Below are positions 34,114 to 54,027 of a DNA stretch of 64,000 nt, one piece after another. A model generated the notes under the pieces. The model had not been told where the DNA came from. It worked only from the letters and a program-made list of their open reading frames with translations, and ran no database searches. How positions within the stretch are numbered: position 1 is the stretch's first letter; every line of letters starts with the position of its first letter. Where the stretch lies: assembly GCF_058153355.1 (NCBI RefSeq), contig NZ_CM177019.1; one strand, written 5' to 3'. The position numbers and the translations under genes were made by a program.

Positions 34114-36399
34114 TCAGATCTTACATGCGCCGCTTTCGCAGCCATCGTCCTGAATTGACGGCACCAGATCGTCTTGTGCGTCTTCTGCACCGTCACGGGT
34201 GTTCTGATAATACAGCGTTTTGACCCCGAATTTGTAGGCGGTGAGCAGGTCTTTCAGCAGTTGCTGCATCGGCACTTTTCCTGACGGGAAGCGTGACGGA
34301 TCGTAGTTGGTGTTAGCAGAGATCGACTGATCGATAAATTTCTGCATGATACCCACCAGTTGCAGGTAGCCATCGTTACCCGGCATTTCCCACAGCAGCT
34401 CATAGGCGTCGTGCAGATGCTCGTAGTCCGGCACCACCTGGCGCAGAATACCGTCTTTCGACGCTTTGATGCTGACGTAACCACGCGGCGGTTCAATACC
34501 GTTAGTGGCGTTAGAGATCTGCGAAGAAGTCTCTGACGGCATCAGAGCAGAAAGCGTGGAGTTACGCAGGCCGTGCGTTTTGATTGACTCACGCAGTGCT
34601 TCCCAGTCGTAATGCAGCGGCTCATTAGCGATGGCATCCAGATCTTTCTTATAGGTATCGATCGGCAGGATCCCTTTCGCGTAAGTGGTTTCGTTAAACC
34701 ACGGGCACGCGCCTTGCTCTTTCGCCAGCTCATTAGACGCTTTCAGCAGGTAATACTGAATGGCTTCGAAGGTTTTATGCGTCAGGTTGTTGGCGCTGCC
34801 GTCGGAGTAGCGTTTACCGTGCTTCGCCAGGTAGTAAGCGAAGTTGATCACACCAATACCCAGCGTACGACGACCCATCGCTCCACGTTTAGCGGCCGGG
34901 ATCGGGTAATCCTGATAATCCAGCAGTGCGTCGAGTGCACGAACCGCCAGAATCGCCAGCTCTTCCAGTTCATCCTGGCTGTTAATTGCGCCCAGGTTGA
35001 AAGCAGAAAGCGTACACAGCGCGATTTCACCGTTCTCGTCGTTGACATCATTCAGTGGTTTGGTCGGTAGGGCGATTTCCAGGCACAGGTTAGACTGGCG
35101 CACTGGTGCAATAGCCGGATCAAACGGGCTGTGGGTGTTGCAGTGGTCTACGTTCTGAATATAGATACGACCGGTAGACGCACGTTCCTGCATCATCAGC
35201 GAGAACAGCTCAACGGCTTTCACACGCTGCTTGCGGATGCTGTCGTCTTTCTCATATTTGGTGTACAGGCGTTCAAACTCTTCCTGATCGGCGAAGAACG
35301 CGTCGTACAGCCCCGGTACGTCGGACGGGCTGAACAGGGTGATATCTTCACCTTTCAGCAGACGGGTATACATCAGTTTGTTGATTTGTACCCCGTAGTC
35401 CATATGACGCACGCGGTTGCCTTCAACCCCACGGTTGTTTTTCAACACCAGCAGGCTTTCCACTTCCAGATGCCACATCGGGTAGAACAGCGTTGCTGCA
35501 CCGCCACGCACACCGCCCTGAGAGCAGGATTTCACCGCTGTCTGGAAATGTTTGTAAAACGGAATACAGCCGGTGTGGAATGCTTCGCCACCGCGAATCG
35601 GGCTACCCAGCGCACGAATACGCCCGGCGTTAATGCCGATCCCGGCACGCTGGGAAACGTATTTAACAATCGCGCTGGAGGTGGCGTTGATGGAATCCAG
35701 GCTGTCGCCGCACTCAATCAGCACGCAGGAGCTGAACTGACGAGTCGGGGTACGCACGCCGGACATGATTGGCGTCGGCAGCGAAATTTTAAATGTGGAA
35801 ACCGCGTCGTAAAAACGCTTCACGTATTGCAGGCGCGTTTCACGCGGGTAGTTCGAGAACAGGCACGCAGCAACCAGAATATAGAGGAACTGGGCGCTCT
35901 CATAGATTTCGCCGGTCACGCGGTTCTGTACCAGATATTTGCCTTCCAGCTGCTTAACGGCAGCATAAGAGAAGGTCATATCACGGTCGTGATCGATAAA
36001 CGTGTCCATCTGCTTGAACTCTTCTTCCGTGTAGTCTTCCAGCAGATGATTATCGTATTTGCCCATCTCGACCATTTTCACCACGTGGTCGTACAGCGCA
36101 GGCGGCTCAAACTGGCCGTAGGCTTTTTTACGCAGGTGGAAGATCGCCAGGCGCGCGGCGAGATACTGATAATCCGGCGCATCACGGGAGATCAGGTCTG
36201 CGGCAGCCTTGATAATAGTTTCGTGGATGTCAGAGGTCTTGATACCGTCATAAAACTGAATGTGGGAGCGCAGTTCGACCTGGGAAATCGAAACGTTATG
36301 CAGTCCTTCTGCCGCCCAATCCAGAACGCGATGGATTTTGTCGAGATTGATGCGCTCTGTGCTACCGTCGCGCTTTGTCACCAGCAGATTCTGATTCAT
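34114..36399 (-). CDS. nrdA: class Ia ribonucleotide reductase alpha subunit NrdA (761 aa)
   Basis: Track ORF 34114..36591 trimmed to MNQNLLVTKRDGSTERINLDK... Confidence 0.95.
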   Translation of the reverse strand: MNQNLLVTKRDGSTERINLDKIHRVLDWAAEGLHNVSISQVELRSHIQFYDGIKTSDIHETIIKAAADLISRDAPDYQYLAARLAIFHLRKKAYGQFEPPALYDHVVKMVEMGKYDNHLLEDYTEEEFKQMDTFIDHDRDMTFSYAAVKQLEGKYLVQNRVTGEIYESAQFLYILVAACLFSNYPRETRLQYVKRFYDAVSTFKISLPTPIMSGVRTPTRQFSSCVLIECGDSLDSINATSSAIVKYVSQRAGIGINAGRIRALGSPIRGGEAFHTGCIPFYKHFQTAVKSCSQGGVRGGAATLFYPMWHLEVESLLVLKNNRGVEGNRVRHMDYGVQINKLMYTRLLKGEDITLFSPSDVPGLYDAFFADQEEFERLYTKYEKDDSIRKQRVKAVELFSLMMQERASTGRIYIQNVDHCNTHSPFDPAIAPVRQSNLCLEIALPTKPLNDVNDENGEIALCTLSAFNLGAINSQDELEELAILAVRALDALLDYQDYPIPAAKRGAMGRRTLGIGVINFAYYLAKHGKRYSDGSANNLTHKTFEAIQYYLLKASNELAKEQGACPWFNETTYAKGILPIDTYKKDLDAIANEPLHYDWEALRESIKTHGLRNSTLSALMPSETSSQISNATNGIEPPRGYVSIKASKDGILRQVVPDYEHLHDAYELLWEMPGNDGYLQLVGIMQKFIDQSISANTNYDPSRFPSGKVPMQQLLKDLLTAYKFGVKTLYYQNTRDGAEDAQDDLVPSIQDDGCESGACKI

Positions 36400-36476
36400 G
36401 TATGTCGTACCTGTTTTTGGAATTCTTTCCGCAATAGCTTCATGCAGACTACCTGTAGTGAGGGAAGCTGCTAAGA

Positions 36477-36522
36477 ACACTATATATAGGGGGTATGTTT
36501 GGGATTCACTGCAAGATAGTGT
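36477..36522. promoter_or_regulatory. two NrdR-box-like palindromes upstream of nrdA
   Basis: acactatatataggg and cactgcaagatagtgt about 30 bp apart, resembling the NrdR box as I recall it. Confidence 0.4.
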
Positions 36523-36552
36523 GAAAATGGCCCTCTTGCAAGTGCATAACTT

Positions 36553-36561
36553 TGTGGATAA
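36553..36561 (-). promoter_or_regulatory. DnaA box (TTATCCACA) in nrdA upstream region
   Basis: Plus-strand tgtggataa is the reverse complement of the 9-mer consensus. Confidence 0.45.
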
Positions 36562-37094
36562 CTCAGGAAGGAAAAAGTGGCTTTCGCGCACCTTAGGTCA
36601 GACAAGGTGTCCGGGAAAGTCAATGGGAAGAGAAAAATTTGTTAAAAATAACTGTTCGGCGATTTCTTGAACGGCAGAATAGTATGGGTAAATTGATATA
36701 GATGGTTTATTAATCTTATCGCTAATGATTGTCAAAATTGATCTAAGTACGAATCATCACATAATCTGATGTATCAGTTGTGGTCAATATATAAGCGAAT
36801 GTAAGCGATTGTTGAGTCGGAAATGGTTGTTTTCTATTCGGTTATTGTTAAATACCAAGCCAATTTGTTACTTTTGCATATATTATAAGAATATTATTTA
36901 TTACTTTAATTCAGTTTAAATATAACCGATTTACCTTAAGGTTATTAATTTGAATTATGATACACTGATATTATTCATCAAGTAATAACAAAATAGTCAT
37001 TGCGCCGGGTTGTACAATTTACAAAATAAATATACCCCATAGCGCATAATGCGATTAAATATGCCGTCTTATAGAAAATGATGGTTAGATGAAT

Positions 37095-40000
37095 ATGCGG
37101 ATTATTTTTCTACGCAAGGAGTATTTATCTTTACTCCCGTCAATGATTGCATCTCTCTTCTCCACTAATGGTATCGCAGCGGTTATTGATTCATGCCAGG
37201 GATATGATATCAAAGCGAGCTGTCAGGCCAGCAGGCAAAGCCTTTCGGGCAATATGCAGGACTGGAGCATCGCCGATGGGCAATGGGTGATATTTTCGGG
37301 TATGGCCAATAATGCCAGCGGAGGGGCCGTATTTTTGCAACAAGGAGCGGAGTTTTCTCTATCGCCAGAAAATGAAACTGGAATGACTCTGTTTGCCAAT
37401 AATACTGTCTCAGGAGAATATAATAATGGCGGGGGAATATTTGCTAAAGAAAACTCAACGCTGAATCTTACTGATGTTATTTTTTCCGGTAACGTCGCAG
37501 GCGGCTATGGTGGCGCAATCTATTCTTCTGGTACTAATGATACTGGTGGCGTCGATTTACGAGTCACTAACGCCATGTTTAGCAATAACATCGCTAATGA
37601 TGGCAAAGGCGGCGCAATTTATACCATCAATAATGATGTCTATCTAAGTGATGATGTTTTTAATAATAACCAGGCATATACATCAACAAGTTACAGTGAT
37701 GGCGATGGCGGTGCAATCGATGTCACCGATAATAATAGCGATATCACGCATCCGTCAGGTTTCACAATAATAAATAACACCGCATTTACAAATAACACTG
37801 CCGAAGGTTATGGCGGGGCAATTTATACCAATAGCGTGACGGCTCCCTATCTTATTGATATTTTTGTTGATGACAGCTACAGCCAGAACGGCGGTGTGTT
37901 AATCGATGAGAACAATAGCGCAGCAGGCTATGGGGATGGTCCTTCCACTGCGGCGGGCGGCTTTATGTATCTCGGCTTAAGTGAAGTTACCTTTGATATT
38001 GCTGACGGAAAAACGCTGGTTATCGGCAATACAGAGAATGATGGAGCTGTTGACTCTATTGCTGGTACCGGGTTGATCACCAAAACAGGTTCCGGCGATC
38101 TAGTACTTAATGCAGATAACAATGACTTTACTGGTGAGATGCAGATTGAAAACGGTGAAGTTACCCTGGGTCGCAGCAACTCCCTGATGAATGTCGGAGA
38201 TAATCATTGCCAGGACGATCCGCAAGACTGCTACGGTCTGACGATAGGGAGCATTGATAAGTACCAGAATCAGGCAGAGCTAAATGTTGGCTCCACCCAA
38301 CAAACCTTTGTGCACGCATTGACGGGCTTTCAGAATGGCACTTTAAATATCGATGCTGGTGGCAATGTTACTGTTAATCAAGGCAGTTTTGCTGGCACCA
38401 TCGAAGGTGCTGGTCAGCTCACCATTGCGCAAAACGGCAGCTACGTGCTGGCAGGGGCGCAGTCGATGGCGCTAACTGGCGATATAGTCGTTGATGATGG
38501 CGCGGTGCTCGATCTCTCTGATTTCTCCACCTGGCAGAGCGGCACATCATACAACGATGGCCTTGAAGTCAGCGGCAGCAGCGGAACGGTTATCGGCAGT
38601 CAGGATGTGGTAGATCTTGCAGGCGGAAACGATATGCATATCGGCGGCGACGGGAAAGATGGCGTCTACGTGGTGGTCGATGCGGGTGATGGGCAGGTCA
38701 GCCTGGCAAATGACAATCAATACCTCGGCACAACGCAAATTGCTTCCGGTACGCTGGTGGTGAGTGACAACTCGCAGCTTGGAGATACCCACTATAACCG
38801 CCAGGTTATCTTTACCGATAATCAACAAGAAAGCGTGATGGAGATTACTGCCAATGTCGATACTCGCTTTACAACGGTTGAGCATGGGCGTGATATTGAA
38901 ATGCGCGCCGACGGTGAAGTGGCAGTTGATGCGGGGGTAGACACGCAGTGGGGCGCACTGATGGCTGACAGCAGCGGGCAGCATCAGGATGAGGGTAGCA
39001 CATTGACTAAAACGGGGGCTGGCACCCTGGAGCTGACCGCCAGCGGTACGACGCAGTCGGCGGTGAGAGTAGAAGAAGGCACGCTGCAAGGCGATGCTGT
39101 GAATATCTTTCCTTATGCTTCGTCGCTGTGGGTCGGTGACGGAGCAACATTCGAGACTGGCGCAGATCAGGATATTCAGTCTATTGATGCTACTTCCAGC
39201 GGCACTATCGACATCAGTGATGGCACCGTTTTGCGCCTGACGAGTCAGGATACTTCCGCCGCACTGGATGCCTCGCTGTTTAACGGCGACGGTACGTTGG
39301 TGAATGCCACCGATGGCGTGACGTTGACAGGCGAGCTTAATACCAACCTTGAAACTGACAGCCTGACTTATCTTTCCGACGTAACAGTTAATGGCAATCT
39401 GACCAATACGTCCGGTGCGGTCAGCCTGCAAAATGGCGTCGCTGGCGATACGCTCACGGTAAACGGTGATTACACCGGCGGCGGTACGTTGTTTCTCGAC
39501 AGCGAATTAAACGGCGATGACTCGGTAAGCGACCAACTGGTGTTGAACGGCAATACCTCGGGTAACACGACCGTGGTGGTTAACCCCATTACCGGCATTG
39601 GTGAACCGACTTCTACAGGTATTAAAGTGGTTGATTTCACTGCTGATCCCACGCAATTTCAAAACAATGCGCTGTTTAGTCTTGCGGGCAGCGGCTACGT
39701 TAATATGGGCGCGTATGACTACACGCTGGTGGAAGATAACAACGACTGGTATCTGCGATCGCAAGAAGTCACTCCGACGCCGCCGCCCGATCCGGACCCG
39801 ACTCCAGATCCTGATCCCACGCCGGATCCTGATCCAACACCCGACCCGGCTCCAGCCCCTATGCCTGCCTACCAGCCGGTGCTGAACGCCAAAGTTGGTG
39901 GCTATCTCAATAACCTACGTGCGGCAAATCAGGCATTTGTGATGGAGCGACGCGATCACGCTGGTGGCGATGGTCAGACGCTGAATTTACGTGTTATCGG

Positions 40001-40775
40001 CGGACGTTATCATTACACGGCGGCAGGGCAATTGGCTCAGCATGAAGACACTTCTACGGTGCAGCTTAGCGGTGACCTGTTTAGGGGGCGCTGGGGCGAT
40101 GACGGCGAATGGATGCTAGGGGCCATTGGTGGTTACAGCGATAACCAGGGTTACAGCTGCTCGAATAGGACCGGAACTCGCGCCGATAACCAGAACCACG
40201 GTTATGCCGTTGGGGTGACGTCAAACTGGTTTCAGCACGGTAGCCAAAAACAGGGGGCCTGGCTGGATAGTTGGCTGCAATACGCGTGGTTTAACAATGA
40301 TGTTTCCGAACAAGGCGATGGTGCGGATCATTACCACTCATCGGGGATTATCGCCTCGCTGGAAGCCGGGTATCAGTGGTTACCGGAGCATGGAGTGGTG
40401 ATTGAACCACAGGCGCAGGTGATTTATCAGGGCGTGCAGCAGGATGATTTTACCGCCGCTAACCATGCGAGCGTGTCACAATCGCAGGGCGATGATCTTC
40501 AGACGCGGCTGGGGGTACACAGCGAATGGCGTACCGCTGTGCATATCACGCCAACCCTGGATCTGAATTATTATCACGATCCCCATTCGACGGAAATTGA
40601 AGAAGATGGCAGCACTATCAGTGACGATGCGGCGAAGCAACGGGGTGAAATAAAAGTGGGAGTAACGGGCAACATCAGTCAGCGAGTGTCCCTGCGTGGT
40701 AGCGTGGCGTGGCAGAAAGGGAGTGATGATTTTGCCCAGACGGCAGGGTTTTTGTCGATGACGGTGAAATGGTAA
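37095..40775 (+). CDS. yfaL: autotransporter adhesin YfaL-like
   Basis: Pectate-lyase-like beta-helix repeats (GGAIY), proline-rich linker, C-terminal beta-barrel ending in W; long AT-rich upstream region; start could be 37089 or 37095. Confidence 0.8.
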   Translation: MRIIFLRKEYLSLLPSMIASLFSTNGIAAVIDSCQGYDIKASCQASRQSLSGNMQDWSIADGQWVIFSGMANNASGGAVFLQQGAEFSLSPENETGMTLFANNTVSGEYNNGGGIFAKENSTLNLTDVIFSGNVAGGYGGAIYSSGTNDTGGVDLRVTNAMFSNNIANDGKGGAIYTINNDVYLSDDVFNNNQAYTSTSYSDGDGGAIDVTDNNSDITHPSGFTIINNTAFTNNTAEGYGGAIYTNSVTAPYLIDIFVDDSYSQNGGVLIDENNSAAGYGDGPSTAAGGFMYLGLSEVTFDIADGKTLVIGNTENDGAVDSIAGTGLITKTGSGDLVLNADNNDFTGEMQIENGEVTLGRSNSLMNVGDNHCQDDPQDCYGLTIGSIDKYQNQAELNVGSTQQTFVHALTGFQNGTLNIDAGGNVTVNQGSFAGTIEGAGQLTIAQNGSYVLAGAQSMALTGDIVVDDGAVLDLSDFSTWQSGTSYNDGLEVSGSSGTVIGSQDVVDLAGGNDMHIGGDGKDGVYVVVDAGDGQVSLANDNQYLGTTQIASGTLVVSDNSQLGDTHYNRQVIFTDNQQESVMEITANVDTRFTTVEHGRDIEMRADGEVAVDAGVDTQWGALMADSSGQHQDEGSTLTKTGAGTLELTASGTTQSAVRVEEGTLQGDAVNIFPYASSLWVGDGATFETGADQDIQSIDATSSGTIDISDGTVLRLTSQDTSAALDASLFNGDGTLVNATDGVTLTGELNTNLETDSLTYLSDVTVNGNLTNTSGAVSLQNGVAGDTLTVNGDYTGGGTLFLDSELNGDDSVSDQLVLNGNTSGNTTVVVNPITGIGEPTSTGIKVVDFTADPTQFQNNALFSLAGSGYVNMGAYDYTLVEDNNDWYLRSQEVTPTPPPDPDPTPDPDPTPDPDPTPDPAPAPMPAYQPVLNAKVGGYLNNLRAANQAFVMERRDHAGGDGQTLNLRVIGGRYHYTAAGQLAQHEDTSTVQLSGDLFRGRWGDDGEWMLGAIGGYSDNQGYSCSNRTGTRADNQNHGYAVGVTSNWFQHGSQKQGAWLDSWLQYAWFNNDVSEQGDGADHYHSSGIIASLEAGYQWLPEHGVVIEPQAQVIYQGVQQDDFTAANHASVSQSQGDDLQTRLGVHSEWRTAVHITPTLDLNYYHDPHSTEIEEDGSTISDDAAKQRGEIKVGVTGNISQRVSLRGSVAWQKGSDDFAQTAGFLSMTVKW
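39775..39865 (+). repeat. in-frame PDPDPT proline-rich tandem repeat inside yfaL
   Basis: Encodes TPTPPPDPDPTPDPDPTPDPDPTPDPAPAP between passenger and translocator. Confidence 0.6.
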
Positions 40776-40914: not shown

Positions 40915-41637
40915 TCACTTATTCTGCGTGTGCAGCATATAGTTCACATCTACGCCGGGACCGAGCTTAAAAGTGTTAGTAATCGGGTTGTAATGCAGTC
41001 CGATCATATGCCGTTCTTTTAGACTGGTCTGATCCACCCAGCCCAGCAATTCTGCCGGTTTAATAAACTTCTTCACATCATGCGTACCTTTAGGCACCAT
41101 GCGCAAAATATATTCAGCACCAACCACCGCCATCAGCCATGACTTGCCGTTGCGATTAAGCGTCGAGAAAAAAACATCGCCGCCCGGTTTCACCAGTTGC
41201 GCACAGGCTCTGACCACTGACTGCGGATCGGGGACGTGCTCCAGCATCTCCATGCAGGTCACCACATCATAATGCCCGGCATGTTTTGCGGCGTGCTCTT
41301 CCACGGTTTCCTGCACGTAATTCACCTGAATGCCACTTTCCAGTGCGTGCAGCTTTGCCACCTGCAATGGCTCAAAGCCCATATCCAGACCGGTCACCGT
41401 CGCGCCTTCCCGCGCCATGCTCTCGGCCAGAATGCCGCCGCCACAACCGACATCGAGCACCTTTTTGCCAAATAAACCGCCAGCACGCTCGGCAATATAG
41501 CCCAGACGCAGCGGGTTAATGCGGTGCAGCGGTTTGAACTCACCTTCAAGATCCCACCAGCGGGAGGCGACGGCTTCAAATTTAGCGATCTCTTCGTGGT
41601 CTACGTTAGGGGTTACCGGCGATTTTTCGGCATTCAT
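40915..41637 (-). CDS. ubiG: ubiquinone biosynthesis O-methyltransferase UbiG (240 aa)
   Basis: Track ORF 40915..41685 trimmed to [16 protein letters not shown]...; SAM-binding LDVGCGGG. Confidence 0.9.
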
Positions 41638-44551: not shown

Positions 44552-48239
<3,688 letters not shown>

Positions 48240-48299: not shown

Positions 48300-49373
48300 T
48301 CATTTGTTGATTTCAATTTTGTCCCATTCTCTCCCTCGGCTGTCCCTATACCGCGCCGCCATTGAATCTGATTTATGCCCGAGAAGACGTTGAGCAAATT
48401 TATCGCCAATCTGGTTCCGGTATAGCCTCGCTGACAGGCTACGCAGTTCATGGAATGTTGGCGGGTCTCCATCAAATGAGAGTCCGGAGGCATTTCTCGC
48501 CTTTGTAAAATACTTTGATACTGTTTTCGGGGAAAGCGGATCGTGATGCTTTGATGCGATTATAGTTTCACTGCTGCTGGCTTCCCTGCATTTCTGTAGT
48601 GTATCAACCAGTGAGATATTGAGCGCGTCAATCGTTAGCGTCAGCGGAATGGCGAGCTTAGCCCCTGTTTTACCCTGCTCAATGTGAAGATGGTTGTCGT
48701 TTATGTCTGACCACTTCATTCTACATAAATCGCCCACTCTCTGCCCTGTAATGACGGCCAAATCCATTGCCAGCCTCAGCCAGATAGGGAGAGGTTCGGC
48801 TGCATGGTAAATCTCGACATACTCATTAGCTGTCAGCCTTGAGCGCCTTACTTCTGACTTTGCTGTGCGGGTTGCTGTTACCGGATTCGTAGCCACATGC
48901 CCCTCGGCTATTGCTTCACGAAAAACGTCAACAAGGGTTGACCTGATTAATTTTGCGGAAGCCGCTTTACCTTCTGCTACGTAGGTATTTAGCATTGCTG
49001 CCACCTCTTTCGTTGATATGTCAGTGAGCGGTTTGTCCGGCAATTTTCTTCGAATTGCCCTGATTTTGCTGGCGTAGTCGAGTAGAGTTTTCGGTCTGAT
49101 GCCCCTCTCGCTGAGGATTGTTTCATATCGGTCAAGCCACGCATGAAGAGTGATTGCGTCAGCGCCTTTAATCCTGTCTATCAGTGACTCACGCCTGTTC
49201 TCAGATAGCAACTCAATATTGGCCTGAATAGCCTCTGAAACTGCTATCCTTCTGTCTCTGCCTAATCCGAACTCTTTACCCGTCCTTGGGTCCCTGTAGC
49301 AGTAATATCCATTGTTTCTTATATAAAGGTTAGGGGGTAAATCCCGGCGCTCATGACTTCGCCTTCTTCCCAT
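48300..49373 (-). CDS. int: lambda-family tyrosine integrase (357 aa)
   Basis: N-terminus MGRRRSHERRDLPPNLYIRNNGYYCYRDPRTGKEFGLGRDRRIA matches my memory of lambda Int; C-terminal catalytic region with HELRSL...LGH...Y. Confidence 0.9.
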   Translation of the reverse strand: MGRRRSHERRDLPPNLYIRNNGYYCYRDPRTGKEFGLGRDRRIAVSEAIQANIELLSENRRESLIDRIKGADAITLHAWLDRYETILSERGIRPKTLLDYASKIRAIRRKLPDKPLTDISTKEVAAMLNTYVAEGKAASAKLIRSTLVDVFREAIAEGHVATNPVTATRTAKSEVRRSRLTANEYVEIYHAAEPLPIWLRLAMDLAVITGQRVGDLCRMKWSDINDNHLHIEQGKTGAKLAIPLTLTIDALNISLVDTLQKCREASSSETIIASKHHDPLSPKTVSKYFTKARNASGLSFDGDPPTFHELRSLSARLYRNQIGDKFAQRLLGHKSDSMAARYRDSRGREWDKIEINK

Positions 49374-49569
49374 TTCTGATCCTCTTCAAAAGGCTATCTG
49401 TTACTGGTCGATTTAAGTCAACCTTTACCGCTGATTCGTGGAACAAATACTCTCTTCCATCCTTAACCGGAGGAGGGAATATCCTGCACTCGCGTACCCA
49501 TCGACGAACTGTTTCAAGGCTCCTTGGGCGTCGCTGGCGTGCGTTCCACTCCTGAAGTGTCAAGTACAT
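49351..49569 (-). CDS. xis: lambda-type excisionase (72 aa)
   Basis: MYLTLQEWNARQRRPRSLETVRRWVRECRIFPPPVKDGREYLF matches my memory of lambda Xis; overlaps int start. Confidence 0.85.
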   Translation of the reverse strand: MYLTLQEWNARQRRPRSLETVRRWVRECRIFPPPVKDGREYLFHESAVKVDLNRPVTDSLLKRIRNGKKAKS

Positions 49570-49653
49570 CGCAAAGTCTCCGCAATTACTCGCAAGGGAG
49601 CGAGTATTGGTTTATTTTCTCCAACAAAAAAGGAGCCGAAGCTCCTTTGATGA

Positions 49654-50325
49654 TTAAAATTCGAATTGTCTCGCCCGAAGGCTTTTCAGCATTGGTTTTG
49701 CCCGTTCGAAAAGGGCGCTTGCTTGGTCAAGTCGTGTCGCCTCCCTTAGCAGTACATCTCTGTTTTTCGTCACCGTGTAAAAAGTTTCAAACGCGATGTC
49801 ATACAGCTTGCTCGTGTATGATGAGTTCAGTTCCTTCAATATCGGGTACAGACGTTTGCAGATGTCCTGCGCATTCTCCATCTGTACCTGCATATAGCAA
49901 AGGAGGATGATTTCTTCGTCTGTGAATTGCGGCTGAATCTGCGGCTGCAGTTCGGTTGGTGTTGTTTTTCCCTGGCTGAAATAACAGTCTTCCAGTTTTT
50001 CGAACACATCCCACGCCTGATCGGTTTCGAGCATTTTGGCATGACGGGCGGCACCGCGTTCTGTCCAGAGGATGAGCGAGCGAACGTTACGGGCGATTGT
50101 CACAGAGTGACTTAAAGACACTCTGTGCTTAAACTCACGCAATTCTGCACCTTCCAGCAAAAAATAATGTTTACCAATAACAAAACGTTCATGGTTTCGG
50201 CTGTGGTTTTTGCGAATATTAGTTACATCTGTGCCGTAAAGGTGGGCAAGAAGTTCAGTAGTAATAACGGGGATTTGGTTATGGCTGATCTGGGGTACCG
50301 TTTCTACGGTGATTTGAGTAGACAT
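49654..50325 (-). CDS. phage antirepressor-like protein, ORF6N-type N-terminal domain
   Basis: KHYFLLEGAELREFKH...ILWTERGAARHAKMLETDQAWDVFEKLEDCYF resembles the ORF6N/antirepressor family; start chosen at the second Met (50325); track ORF start 50337 is the alternative. Confidence 0.5.
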   Translation of the reverse strand: MSTQITVETVPQISHNQIPVITTELLAHLYGTDVTNIRKNHSRNHERFVIGKHYFLLEGAELREFKHRVSLSHSVTIARNVRSLILWTERGAARHAKMLETDQAWDVFEKLEDCYFSQGKTTPTELQPQIQPQFTDEEIILLCYMQVQMENAQDICKRLYPILKELNSSYTSKLYDIAFETFYTVTKNRDVLLREATRLDQASALFERAKPMLKSLRARQFEF

Positions 50326-50490
50326 AGTCTTCTCCATATGTGTTTTAGTCTACGCTCACCAGTTAGTAGCTGGTGATCGGGTGTCAACTAGAGCCACATA
50401 TGAAGCTCCGGGCATATTCCCCTTGTGGGTATTGTATTACGCCTCTCCACCCGACCTTTGTACGGATGTAACTACGCCAAATTGCAGGCA

Positions 50491-50568
50491 TAAAAAAGCC
50501 GCAAAGCTATCGGGTGCGGATGACCGCATATGTGTTCTAGTACGGCCAGTATGCGATAGCTTTGGCGG
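50491..50568 (-). other. inverted repeat plus run of six T (minus strand) between the two antirepressor paralogs; possible terminator or structured RNA
   Basis: gccgcaaagctatcgg ... cgatagctttggcgg arms about 40 nt apart; reverse complement ends in TTTTTT. Confidence 0.25.
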
Positions 50569-50655
50569 ATTTGTCAAATCATGTAGGCCTTATCTTGCTG
50601 TAAGCCGCGCCATTCGGGCTTTTCCCCACATTTGGGGAAAACTATCTTGTCAAAA

Positions 50656-51438
50656 TCATGCAGCCTTTCGCTCTCCTTCGATGAGTTCCTCTATTTTGTG
50701 CACTCCAGCCTCGTTGTACCGAAATGTTTCAACCTGCTTGTCATTGTGCGCCGATTTGTCGATGAACCACTTCCCGTACTTTTCTGTTTTGAGCATGTAG
50801 GTGTTGGCTATGCGTCCTACCTTGTTGGCTGAAATACCGTAGCGCTGGCCGACTTCCGTAGCAGAGTAGTAGTGCTCTGAGATAGCTGGCAGAGGTACAA
50901 CATCGCGACCAACAATCGGGTTGAACACTCCAGCTACTGCTGCCTGCTTTGATTCTGAGGACAGATTCGGGAACATATTCACCAGTCGATCCGCCACGTT
51001 CAAAGCTATTTCCATGGCTCGCGCACGGTCTAGGCTACTTTCTGGTTGCGGTACTGGTTGAGGATGGTTGGCAACCTTTTCGCGCTGATTGAAGTAGCCG
51101 TCCTCCAGTTTTTCGAACACGTCCCATGCCTGATCGGTTTCGAGCATCTTCGCGTGACGGGCGGCTCCGCGCTCTGTCCAGAGGATGAGGTGGCGTGCAT
51201 TTGGGGCAATTTTCACAAAGTAGTTTAAAGCTACTTTGTGTTTTAGCGCGCGCAGCTCGTCACCAACGACCTTGTAGAAGTGTACCCCCTCAACAAAGCG
51301 CGACTTGTTTTCATGATGGTTTTGCCGGATGCGCACAACATCCGTTCCGTACAACTGCGCCAATAGTTCGCTGGTGATGACGTTGGTTTGTTTGTAGGTG
51401 ATTGGTGAAAGTGTTTCAACAGAAATTTGAGTATTCAT
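50656..51438 (-). CDS. phage antirepressor-like protein, ORF6N-type (260 aa), paralog of 49654..50325
   Basis: About 60-70% identical N-terminal 120 aa to the neighbouring ORF, with a distinct C-terminal domain. Confidence 0.5.
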   Translation of the reverse strand: MNTQISVETLSPITYKQTNVITSELLAQLYGTDVVRIRQNHHENKSRFVEGVHFYKVVGDELRALKHKVALNYFVKIAPNARHLILWTERGAARHAKMLETDQAWDVFEKLEDGYFNQREKVANHPQPVPQPESSLDRARAMEIALNVADRLVNMFPNLSSESKQAAVAGVFNPIVGRDVVPLPAISEHYYSATEVGQRYGISANKVGRIANTYMLKTEKYGKWFIDKSAHNDKQVETFRYNEAGVHKIEELIEGERKAA

Positions 51439-51580
51439 AGCGTCCTCACATTGGCTTTTGCATTGAAGAAAGCTTGACGGTGAACTCGCCGTAGCGAGTT
51501 CAGATAAAAGAAATCTCCGCGAATGCGAGGATTGTTATTCATTGCCGATATTCACCTTTATCTCAAACACCTTTATCGGC

Positions 51581-51823
51581 TTATCTCCTTTGCATGGCAC
51601 GTAATTTTTTCAGATGGTTCTCCTGCTCTGTTTCAGCCAGGATCTGGTGATATTCTCTGTGATCAATGTGTTCGAATAAATTATTGAATTTTCTGATGCA
51701 CACCCTTCCAGGATAGCCATCCATCCTCTTGAAGAATACTGAGTGATCAGTACTACGAATGATTTTTACTGGATAGCCAGCGCTATCGGTGTATATCTGA
51801 CCACGTTGAATCAGAGCGAACAT
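51581..51823 (-). CDS. hypothetical phage protein (80 aa)
   Basis: ORF in the leftward early operon; no motif recognised. Confidence 0.3.
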   Translation of the reverse strand: MFALIQRGQIYTDSAGYPVKIIRSTDHSVFFKRMDGYPGRVCIRKFNNLFEHIDHREYHQILAETEQENHLKKLRAMQRR

Positions 51824-51907
51824 TCCTTTATCTCCAGCGGCAAATCGAATACATCATCAGTGCCACCGCCAGTGCGGTTCCTACCTCTTTGAATGCTTCA
51901 GGCCAGG

Positions 51908-52627
51908 TCATTGATTCACCTCCTTCGGCGGTTCTGGTAGCGGCATCCAGTGGGTTACATTGCGGCTCTGCGTTTCGAAGAACTCCTCACCATTGCGGAC
52001 GACATCAAAAAATTCACCGTCTCGATATTGCGCATAAAGAACGAATGCGCCATCACATAAAATAATTACGTGCTGACCATCATCAGGCATTCGCTCACTA
52101 CAGCTTATCCAACCATCCGGAATTACCGGAGAGTTGCCGGGTTCTTTAATGTGCAAGCGAGGCTCACCATCTTTTGGTTCAGGCCACTGGCGTTCCATGT
52201 TGATCTTCAATTTATTTTCCATAGCAGCGGTAATTTCAGCATCACTGATACCAGCACGGCGCTGTGCATCCCACAACAGAAACTGCATATCAGCCCACTC
52301 GCTAAGATCGTCTGGTTCGGCTGCGGCTTCCAGTTCATCCAGCAGTACCAGCACGGTAGCCGGATTGGCCTCTGCTATGAATTCAGCGTTTGCATAAGCC
52401 TGAGCATCTGTTTCAACCAGGCAGTTAACATGACATTCTGCAATCACGCCACCGGGTTCTCCTTTCCATTTTTGACAAACAAAAACTCCTGTTAAATTGC
52501 CATGCCGATTAACAGATGTATGCCCTACGATGTAGCTTCCTTTAGTTGCTTTTTCTGCCTTGGCACGCAGTGCCTGATAGTCAATCTTGCTCACTGGTTG
52601 CCTCCTTTGCGAATCTGTTCCGCCCAT
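51908..52627 (-). CDS. phage protein with C-terminal DUF551-like domain (Ead/Ea22-like region of lambdoid phages)
   Basis: C-terminal WISCSERMP...VTHWMPLPEPP pattern recalled from DUF551 prophage proteins. Confidence 0.45.
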   Translation of the reverse strand: MGGTDSQRRQPVSKIDYQALRAKAEKATKGSYIVGHTSVNRHGNLTGVFVCQKWKGEPGGVIAECHVNCLVETDAQAYANAEFIAEANPATVLVLLDELEAAAEPDDLSEWADMQFLLWDAQRRAGISDAEITAAMENKLKINMERQWPEPKDGEPRLHIKEPGNSPVIPDGWISCSERMPDDGQHVIILCDGAFVLYAQYRDGEFFDVVRNGEEFFETQSRNVTHWMPLPEPPKEVNQ

Positions 52628-52962
52628 TCTTCTAGGGATTTCTCCGCATATTCACCAGACAGGCCATCAATCGGATGCGGTTCATTAGCCAACTCTTCTT
52701 TCGCTGACAGAATCATGCGTGTAACGTCGAAAACTTCACGTAAAGACTTATTGATAAATCCGTGATTGAACGCAGCAGCAAGACGGCTTGCGGTATAGTT
52801 AATACCCTCGTTGCGAGCCTCAGCACGTACTTCATCGAATTTACGCACCAGATATTCAGCGTTTGTTTCGTTAACCTTTAAATCTCGTGGGATGCATTTA
52901 CCTTTCAGAAATCCATCCATCTCAATTAGTGACATTTGTTTCATTTCTTCCCACTCCGCCAC
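52591..52962 (-). CDS. hypothetical phage protein (123 aa)
   Basis: Co-oriented ORF, unrecognised. Confidence 0.35.
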
Positions 52963-53115
52963 ATCGCATTCAGATATTTGTTGTCATTAACAGAACCGAA
53001 ACTCTTTCTCTTAAGCAATTCCTCTCTCGATGGCATTGGCTTTACGCGCTGGCGAATAATCATTTCTGCTGGAAGAATGCCGGGATTGTATGCAAGTCCT
53101 CTCATGGTAAATTCC

Positions 53116-53412
53116 TCAGTCATTACTGATAGCGCCATAGCGTGAGCGGTAATTACGCAGGCGCGGGTCGATATATTCAGGGAAGTGGGTATATGTGGCT
53201 TTGCGGAATGGTCTCATTGCTGTTTCGTTTGTTCGGTCCTTCTCCTGTTTTAGCGCGAGTTGTATATCGCGTCGGTACATCCGTTCTGCTTTTGTTTCTG
53301 GTGTCAGAGCAAGAAACGCGTCGAAATTGTTTTTGATATTTTCCAGCACCTCCGTCTTGGAGCTACCGGAGCAGTTGCGCGGGTCATCCGCACCATACAG
53401 AGGCGCTGGCAT
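53116..53412 (-). CDS. hypothetical phage protein (98 aa)
   Basis: Co-oriented ORF, unrecognised. Confidence 0.3.
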
Positions 53413-53435
53413 AATGGGAGCCTTATTTTCAGTAA

Positions 53436-54023
53436 TCAGAAAGGAGGGTAATCGTTCTGGCTGTAACCATAATCATCTGCATGATTCTGGCTTACGTTTT
53501 TAGAGCGATTGTCTTTATCTTTGAGGCTGGCAACCATGTTGGCGATAGTTTCTGGTTGCTTGCCTTCCGACTTTTCTTTAAGGGTTTGACCTGTTTGTGC
53601 AATAAACGGGATGCGTATTTCCATCTGGTAGCTGTCTGCGCCAGTCTTTTTGTTTGTGGTTAATACTTTCTGGAGCACTAACCCGATTTTCTTTCCATGA
53701 AATTCAGGAGCAACAAATTTACTGGCGGAAACCATATGTTGCGTTAACTGCTTAATCCCAACACACCCCATCATGGCATGAACGACGTTTGCACCAAACT
53801 TGTTTTCCGTTCCGTCATTTTTCTGAACACAAACGCTAAGATACTGGATTTTACGTCCGTCGTCGGATTCTCCAGAAAACTCAATAAATTTGGCTCCTTT
53901 CTCTGATTGCTTTAGTTCTGCTTCAGTAATGGTAATGATATGAGCGCCAGTTTCGTTAATAAAACCACCTTGCCCTGCGGTCAGTGCTGCTTCTTCGTTA
54001 TAAGTAAAAATCACGTTGCTCAT
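53436..54023 (-). CDS. putative ssDNA-binding protein (DUF669-like) with SSB-like acidic C-terminal tip
   Basis: Ends DDYGYSQNDYPPF, like the SSB C-terminal tail; lies next to a Sak4-like ATPase. Confidence 0.4.
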   Translation of the reverse strand: MSNVIFTYNEEAALTAGQGGFINETGAHIITITEAELKQSEKGAKFIEFSGESDDGRKIQYLSVCVQKNDGTENKFGANVVHAMMGCVGIKQLTQHMVSASKFVAPEFHGKKIGLVLQKVLTTNKKTGADSYQMEIRIPFIAQTGQTLKEKSEGKQPETIANMVASLKDKDNRSKNVSQNHADDYGYSQNDYPPF

Positions 54024-54027
54024 GCTT

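Follow-up and report, generated by a model that had tools for sequence, protein, structure and literature searches.

A 78-bp in-frame passenger deletion in the autotransporter gene yfaL/ehaC marks a small clone of an E. coli-clade genome

The gene yfaL in the stretch of DNA analysed here, 64,000 nucleotides of contig NZ_CM177019.1 (assembly GCF_058153355.1) and hereafter the window, encodes a shorter protein than its K-12 counterpart, which raises the question of where the missing residues were lost. The first-pass annotation, made from the letters alone, had put the K-12 length at about 1250 aa and had implied that slippage in an in-frame repeat of the proline-rich linker lay behind the difference.

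The locus is an ordinary, well-known chromosomal yfaL/ehaC gene of an E. coli-clade genome, and both its identity and its domain content are demonstrated here (Table 1). The gene order nrdA-ypaB-yfaL-ubiG-gyrA is the same in the window and in K-12, which makes the gene the syntenic ortholog of K-12 yfaL/ehaC, and its position between nrdA/ypaB and ubiG/gyrA together with high full-length identity (92.8% of amino acids to K-12 and 96.6% to strain 2020CK-00188) places it in the yfaL/ehaC ortholog group. Of 5,426 complete E. coli genomes, 5,413 have at this locus a match, annotated yfaL, that covers at least 80% of the query; the gene name given at first reading is thus borne out by synteny, ortholog annotation and domains. 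The open reading frame is intact and yields 1226 aa plus stop from the start at 37095, while an in-frame alternative ATG at 37089 adds two residues (37089..40775, + strand, 1228 aa). RefSeq orthologs are annotated from the second ATG (MRIIF...), which is equivalent to 37095 in the window, so that the earlier combination of 1228 aa with this start had the right frame and a length that belongs to the upstream ATG.

Table 1. Positions in the window of yfaL, its internal features and its upstream region
Feature	Position	Strand	Basis or remark
ypaB	36527..36670	+	Small 47-aa ORF that differs from K-12 by one substitution; overlap with the divergent promoter region of nrdAB
DnaA box	36553..36561	-	Perfect, TTATCCACA; sole one in the 64-kb window; upstream of nrdA
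ypaB-yfaL spacer	36671..37094		AT-rich, 424 bp, 28.8% GC; orthologous to the K-12 yfaL/ypaB promoter island
yfaL/ehaC CDS	37095..40775	+	AIDA-I-type (type Va) autotransporter adhesin; ORF, Pfam domains, synteny, RefSeq annotation of orthologs
Junction of the 78-bp (26-aa) in-frame deletion	38505..38509	+	Passenger domain; alignment to K-12 and to undeleted alleles
Proline-rich linker	39762..39866	+	aa 890-924, QEVTPTPPPDPDPTPDPDPTPDPDPTPDPAPAPMP; between autochaperone domain and barrel-plug helix
Three PDPDPT units	39786-39839	+	In-frame, within the linker

From the N-terminus, the predicted layout of the protein would be a Sec signal peptide, then a beta-helical passenger that carries PATR repeats, followed by an autochaperone, the proline-rich linker and a plug helix, with a 12-strand beta-barrel at the C-terminus. 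The autotransporter beta-domain PF03797 scores 118.1 bits (cut-off 26) over residues 967-1206 and 3-254 of the 255 profile positions, the autochaperone AC_1 (PF18883) scores 63.5 bits (cut-off 27.1) over residues 770-880, and the PATR repeats (PF12951) reach 43.4 bits (cut-off 27). By Pfam, the protein has the C-terminal 12-strand beta-barrel, and the autochaperone at the C-terminal end of the passenger, of a type Va autotransporter. The N-terminus, MRIIFLRKEYLSLLPSMIASLFSTNGIAAV, has by inspection a basic n-region and a hydrophobic core, and its residues 1-23 are the same as in K-12. In AF2 models, passenger residues 300-660 are mainly beta-strands, but at a mean pLDDT of just 49-53.

K-12 YfaL is indeed 1250 aa long, and alignment with it, a check already proposed at first reading, resolves the 24-aa shortfall into a loss of 26 aa in the passenger and a gain of 2 aa at the end of the linker. 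The window protein is 24 residues shorter because of a 78-bp in-frame deletion in the passenger, not repeat slippage. The lost residues, VLTLEGDAADLAALQDEPQSIVLNGG, correspond to K-12 residues 471-496 and lie about 1.3 kb upstream of the linker; the protein now reads ...DDGAVL/DLSDF... across the junction (slash), where a 5-bp microhomology, GTGCT, is what remains of the imperfect direct repeats GGCGCGGTGCT and GGCGGTGTGCT. The nearest undeleted alleles, those of EC42405 (NZ_CP043414.1, 1252 aa) and 2020CK-00188 (1254 aa), both keep the 78 bp and share 96.8-97.5% nucleotide identity with the window over 5.3 kb, rising to 100% in the 300 bp that surround the deletion; against EC42405, the deletion is the sole indel over the 5.3 kb, and its flanks are 100% identical. 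In places within the 3' half, block-wise identity to these two alleles is as low as 87-95%, a drop that shows mosaic recombination. The window yfaL is a member of an allele class that is rare and mosaic through recombination, and it is on this background that the deletion would have arisen, between two short and imperfect direct repeats spaced 78 bp from each other. The likely mechanism is illegitimate recombination or replication slippage at the 5 bp of exact microhomology, which would have removed 26 passenger residues and kept all other domains in frame. Since other rare yfaL alleles carry different in-frame passenger deletions (7-83 aa), losses of this kind recur in the gene. It was also considered whether the deleted 26 aa form one coil of the beta-helix, an idea which found no support: the AF2 models, built on a 9-sequence alignment, reached a mean pLDDT of 53 for the undeleted EC42405 segment and 49 for the window segment, too low to read coil structure, and although an offset of 26 gave the top local self-similarity score in the passenger (11), this was not above shuffled sequences, the maximum of which had a mean of 9.1 and a 95th percentile of 20.

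Such a deletion might inactivate the adhesin, through misfolding of the passenger or stalled secretion, and leave yfaL a decaying gene that is effectively dead despite its intact frame. The gene is dispensable and often disrupted elsewhere, by IS1 or IS421 insertions or, in strain MS 16-3, by an internal stop; it is cryptic in K-12; and the pLDDT just past the junction (block 181-190) is 37 as against 64 in the undeleted segment, in models that are both poor. We nevertheless consider a dead gene unlikely. The deletion is in frame and is accompanied by no further lesions, the three yfaL alleles that carry it being equal in length and only 1-2 substitutions apart, and the predicted signal peptide, the autochaperone, the linker and the barrel are all intact. 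Moreover, alleles with other in-frame deletions are in circulation, and beta-helical passengers tolerate such losses. The shortened YfaL would probably still fold and be secreted.

The other candidate for length change is the linker, where copy number of the PDPDPT repeat, altered by slipped-strand events, could explain the length difference from K-12 as well as length variation overall, as a fast contingency-type linker would. The in-frame tandem DNA repeat noticed at first reading is genuine but modest: Tandem Repeats Finder reports it at 39784-39835 with a period of 18, 2.9 copies, 79% matches and a score of 62, and it was confirmed as three units. Synonymous differences separate the copies that encode PDPDPT, which by eye repeat perfectly over 11 bp at most. 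By Pfam coordinates, AC_1 ends about 10 aa upstream of the linker and the beta-domain begins about 40 aa downstream. Across Escherichia alleles, linker classes of 21, 25, 27, 33, 35 and 37 aa occur, in multiples of 6 bp, which is consistent with past slippage; an identical length in all alleles, the finding that the first-pass annotation had named as fatal to its view, was accordingly not seen. Against slippage as the cause here, however, PDPDPT occurs three times in the window and three times in K-12, and the window linker is 2 aa longer rather than shorter, ending in PAPAPMP where K-12 has PEPTP. In addition, 46 of 46 complete genomes with a linker segment at least 98.8% identical to that of the window have the same 401-bp span, and because of this invariance within the class the linker is not a fast contingency repeat. 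Linker length does vary, from 21 to 37 aa in steps of 6 bp, with classes that track deep allele lineages; the earlier description of the repeat as a slippage substrate is thus consistent with past changes among allele classes, but the repeat does not behave as an active substrate. All observed linker indels are multiples of 6 bp inside the reading frame, and since the units are multiples of 3 bp, frameshift switching is impossible; of the marks of a contingency locus, the linker showed neither many near-perfect copies, nor copy-number differences among close strains, nor a unit length and location suited to expression switching. Slippage is already refuted for the comparison with K-12, and as a general explanation it is highly improbable. 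The PDPDPT linker is a conserved spacer, and its length has moved in 6-bp steps only as allele classes diverged.

The deletion junction, represented by the 41-nt sequence GTTGATGATGGCGCGGTGCTCGATCTCTCTGATTTCTCC, does not occur in 5,426 complete E. coli genomes or among 111 protein-cluster representatives, and exact junction scans gave no match in GTDB representative genomes or in JGI metagenome contigs. Exact-protein look-ups of the window YfaL with both candidate starts found no match in a collection of 15 billion sequences, nor did those of the YfaL of the two sister assemblies in a collection of clustered proteins. These sister alleles, which were located solely via the neighbouring UbiG protein, are those of two independent draft assemblies, GCA_015332025.1 and GCA_043012465.1; both contain the same junction, both encode a 1226-aa product, and both are 99.97% identical to the window over 11.7 kb. 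Because these two independent assemblies share the junction, it can be taken as genuine and as the mark of a small clone. The 78-bp deletion is lineage-specific and fixed in this clone, made up of the window genome and the two draft assemblies. That the gap is instead a sequencing or assembly artefact, a collapse between two similar repeats, might be suggested by the absence of the junction from all complete E. coli genomes and of the exact protein from the 15-billion-sequence collection, but is hardly credible given the identical junction and 1226-aa product in two independent NCBI assemblies and flanking repeats that match exactly over just 5 bp, much less than an assembly collapse would take.

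The AT-rich DNA that had been pointed out ahead of yfaL is real, a spacer with the same GC content in the window and in K-12 (28.8%); GC is 24-34% over 36600-37100, as against 50% for the whole window, and the wider intergenic region 36401-37094 aligns to K-12 gap-free at 92.5% identity. The K-12 counterpart is promoter island 2342143_534 yfaL/ypaB, of 534 bp (Panyukov and Ozoline 2013, PMC3661553 Table 1), which is H-NS-bound in all ChIP studies cited there for K-12 and for which occupancy by H-NS and RNA polymerase with little productive transcription was measured in K-12 only (PMC3661553). The window spacer is AT-rich, exceeds 300 bp and is orthologous to this listed island. YfaL phenotypes were obtained only once a constitutive promoter had been placed before the gene (PMC3764049), and the same is stated, with reference to Roux 2005, in a passage of PMC7251025. 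A sigma-70 consensus scan of the spacer found 6 promoter-like sites versus 4.1 ± 1.7 in dinucleotide-preserving shuffles, the scan being different from PlatProm, which defines the island class, and the H-NS consensus TCGATAAATT, at up to 2 mismatches, was not enriched in the spacer, with two weak matches only. Because promoter sites do not exceed the shuffles and the H-NS motif is not enriched, silencing in the window strain rests on K-12 orthology. On that footing, the spacer presumably holds a silenced yfaL promoter, and a conserved H-NS-bound promoter island would keep transcription of yfaL cryptic in laboratory culture. From the far end of the spacer, the nrdAB promoter would diverge; the DnaA box belongs to the nrdAB regulatory region and not to yfaL, and both DnaA and H-NS are cited as regulators of nrdA (PMC12176259).

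The yfaL/ehaC gene and its AT-rich, H-NS-bound leader were already known, and the single new fact is the clone-specific 78-bp in-frame deletion. The overall significance is small, for yfaL/ehaC is a near-universal and usually silent E. coli adhesin gene; the account as a whole, which takes in a known adhesin gene, a deletion in one clone, a conserved linker and an H-NS-bound spacer, can be held with high confidence. The deletion could act as a lineage marker, and the deleted allele is a natural "one-segment-shorter" variant for studies of passenger folding or for YfaL surface-display scaffolds. The locus also illustrates that a tandem repeat in a gene need not be the cause of a length difference, the true indel being 1.3 kb away. 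It is speculation, and very unlikely, that the recurrent passenger deletions (26 aa here, 7-83 aa elsewhere) and the stepwise linker classes reflect selected tuning of adhesin projection or antigenic face rather than neutral decay; if this were true, yfaL would be a slowly length-tuned adhesin, matched for example to O-antigen or capsule thickness.

Among known systems, the closest are K-12 YfaL (b2233) and EhaC of EHEC O157:H7, both of the AIDA-I family, with the same position, domain order, three PDPDPT units and AT-rich spacer; the spacer likewise resembles the K-12 promoter island in its orthologous sequence and equal AT content. The window yfaL nevertheless has just 84-94% nucleotide identity to K-12 across the gene, against 98-99% in the flanking nrdA and gyrA. 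The EC42405 allele has the same 35-aa linker apart from one substitution. Bordetella pertactin provides a further comparison, with its repeat polymorphism in region 1, (GGxxP)n, and region 2, (PQP)n, where closely related strains in circulation differ in repeat number, a variation with immunological relevance. Both pertactin and YfaL are autotransporters in which tandem repeats that contain proline, and are in frame, vary in copy number from allele to allele. In YfaL, however, linker length is fixed within allele classes, and the linker adjoins the barrel, whereas the pertactin repeats lie in an exposed loop of the passenger.

The gene yfaL (ehaC) lies in one long open reading frame on the plus strand (37089-40775), and its product carries an Autotransporter beta-domain (118 bits), an autochaperone AC_1 domain (63.5 bits) and PATR repeats (43.4 bits), all Pfam matches well over the curated cut-offs. 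Gene order around it is exactly that of K-12, and the locus is present in 5,413 of 5,426 complete E. coli genomes by megablast, with matches annotated as "AIDA-I family autotransporter adhesin YfaL/EhaC"; the identification as the yfaL autotransporter in the first-pass annotation is therefore secure. The start proposed there also stands, being the second ATG and the RefSeq start in yfaL orthologs (MRIIFLRKEY...), but the proposed 1228 aa goes with the ATG at 37089, and the product is 1226 aa. These two in-frame ATGs are 6 bp apart; public gene calls of identical yfaL alleles differ by 2 aa as well (1242 vs 1244, 1205 vs 1207), which appears to be start-codon ambiguity and not true length variation.

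Coordinates of yfaL, its neighbours and other features in the window
Feature	Position	Strand	Remarks
nrdA	start at 36399	-	neighbour of yfaL
ypaB	36527-36670		neighbour of yfaL; small ORF, 47 aa
DnaA box, perfect	36553-36561		only one in the 64-kb window; within ypaB, opposite strand
yfaL	37095-40775	+	autotransporter adhesin
Deletion junction	38505-38509		5-bp microhomology GTGCT
Proline-rich linker	39762-39866		residues 890-924, QEVTPTPPPDPDPTPDPDPTPDPDPTPDPAPAPMP; between autochaperone domain and pre-barrel segment
Three PDPDPT units	39786-39839		inside the linker
ubiG	40915-41637	-	neighbour of yfaL
gyrA	from 41784		neighbour of yfaL
IS4-family element, first copy	46563-48000		transposase ORF 46651-47997, 448 aa, NF033592
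Lambdoid prophage remnant	48300-56500		between the IS4 copies
Tyrosine integrase ORF	48300-49373	-	prophage remnant
sRNA-Xcc1	50367-50456	-	prophage remnant; 63.8 bits
Lambda CIII thermoregulator	55671-55729	-	prophage remnant; Rfam, 88.5 bits
IS4-family element, second copy	57191-58630		transposase ORF 57279-58625, 448 aa, NF033592
IS66-family transposase ORF	59399-60970		523 aa, NF033517, 479 bits; right after second IS4 copy

K-12 YfaL is 1250 aa, in agreement with the first-pass annotation, which by implication tied the shortfall of the window protein to the PDPDPT repeat of the linker. Alignment shows that the repeat is not the cause, as both linkers hold three PDPDPT units and the window linker is 2 aa longer, ending in PAPAPMP instead of the PEPTP of K-12. 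The missing length sits in the passenger domain as a gap of 26 aa, where K-12 reads ...DDGAVLSLEGDAADLTALQDDPQSIVLNGGVLDLSDF... and the window ...DDGAVLDLSDF..., and which corresponds in DNA to an exact 78-bp deletion. The microhomology at the junction belongs to a pair of imperfect direct repeats, GGCGCGGTGCT and GGCGGTGTGCT, which undeleted alleles carry at a distance of 78 bp; this structure is typical of short repeats that undergo replication slippage or illegitimate recombination, the likely mechanism here. The closest undeleted allele, that of strain EC42405 (1252 aa), shows a single indel relative to the window over 5.3 kb, the 78-bp deletion, and is 100% identical in the ~300 bp flanking it, and thus the deletion is recent on that allele background.

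The best matches among complete genomes align in two pieces with 78 extra bases between them, and a 41-nt junction probe, unable to seed on undeleted alleles, had no match in the 5,426 complete E. coli genomes. The junction was likewise not found in 100,044 GTDB representative genomes or in JGI metagenome contigs, and none of 111 near-full-length YfaL protein-cluster representatives had the 26-aa gap. A look-up of the window's exact UbiG protein, in turn, led to two NCBI drafts carrying the deletion, GCA_015332025.1 (contig AAXEGZ010000005.1) and GCA_043012465.1 (contig DAXYJU010000034.1), both matching the window at 99.97% identity along 11.7 kb, with the same junction and a YfaL of 1226 aa. 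The same junction in two draft assemblies rules out an assembly artefact as the source of the gap, and the deletion is therefore real and a marker of a small clone; it is the sole part of the yfaL finding not already known. Residue 592 (38868-38870) is Phe in the window and Ser in both sister assemblies, K-12 and 2020CK-00188, a change private to the window that explains why the exact YfaL protein was not found in a large protein collection. One sister assembly additionally carries Cys instead of Ser at position 1195.

AF2 models, built on a shallow 9-sequence alignment, reached a mean pLDDT of 49 for the 361-residue segment and 53 for the 387-residue segment, and neither is strong enough to lean on; in the undeleted one, the lost residues span one strand, a short helix and the first part of another strand (pLDDT 64-77). 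In a local self-comparison of the passenger, offset 26, equal to the deletion length, scored best, yet not above shuffled controls; loss of exactly one beta-helix coil is at most a possible reading of these results. Distinct in-frame deletions (7, 13, 20, 23, 33, 35 and 83 aa) are seen in the passengers of further rare alleles, suggesting a domain that can bear losses of this kind, or weak constraint on yfaL. The gene is broken by IS1 or IS421 insertion in NZ_AP045787.1, NZ_CP122499.1, NZ_CM142781.1 and NZ_CP136025.1 and, in NZ_CP146667.1 (strain MS 16-3), by an internal stop, and it appears dispensable and lesion-prone.

The diversity of yfaL is far above that of neighbouring genes. Across the locus, identity to the window is 90-95% in most E. 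coli genomes, just 80-90% in 1,263 and 95-99% in only 64; mid-passenger identity falls to 64-75% in some alleles, against 96-99% for nrdA, ubiG and gyrA (98-99% for nrdA and gyrA). Identity to any one allele shifts abruptly between 200-bp blocks, which indicates intragenic recombination, and this strongly mosaic pattern fits recombination-driven diversification of a surface protein.

The linker is indeed encoded by short in-frame tandem repeats (39784-39835; period 18, 2.9 copies, 79% matches in Tandem Repeats Finder), as first described; the three PDPDPT-encoding copies diverge at synonymous positions, and the longest perfect repeated stretch, by reading the sequence, is 11 bp. Linker length is not uniform across alleles, with discrete classes of 21, 25, 27, 33, 35 and 37 aa species-wide. 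Among 59 complete genomes sampled at even spacing, a 401-bp query segment spanned 395 bp in 39 genomes, 377 bp in 13, 401 bp in 4, 371 bp in 2 and 407 bp in 1, with lengths grouped in blocks tracking allele identity. At codon level, alleles gain or lose PD, PDPT or PDPDPTPD units, always in multiples of 6 bp, and slippage has therefore occurred in yfaL history. Length does not vary within the window's own linker class: every one of the 46 genomes with at least 98.8% identity to the window in the linker segment has precisely its length, and so do the next 14 (~94% identical). Since the copies are imperfect and number about three, the units keep the frame and close relatives show no variation, the linker is not a contingency locus, and the suggested substrate for slipped-strand variation is not an active slippage site.

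Elsewhere in the window, two direct IS4-family copies, 10.6 kb apart and 97% identical over their first 300 nt, with equal transposase scores, flank prophage-like DNA adjoining yfaA. The sister-assembly contigs stop at 46581-46582, the start of the first copy, and E. coli genomes cover just ~35-37% of 41000-64000.

The AT-rich DNA noticed before yfaL is borne out, with GC of 24-34% across 36600-37100. At its far end the intergenic region forms part of the divergent nrdAB promoter, and PMC12176259 cites both DnaA and H-NS as regulators of nrdA; ypaB, which overlaps the nrdAB promoter region, has one substitution relative to K-12. Panyukov and Ozoline listed a 534-bp yfaL/ypaB "promoter island", one of 78 in K-12; islands of this kind are rich in AT, are occupied by RNA polymerase and H-NS and yield next to no transcript, and for this one H-NS binding is marked "according to all studies" (PMC3661553). 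Biofilm phenotypes that depend on YfaL came from strains with a constitutive promoter inserted ahead of the gene (PMC3764049), a route also credited to Roux 2005 as cited in PMC7251025, which is consistent with a cryptic yfaL. Crude scans of the ypaB-yfaL spacer added nothing (6 promoter-like sites vs 4.1 +/- 1.7 in shuffles; H-NS motif not enriched), so that silencing in the window strain is inferred from orthology to K-12, whose spacer has the same GC, 28.8%, as the 424-bp spacer of the window and whose entire intergenic region aligns with the window gap-free at 92.5% identity.
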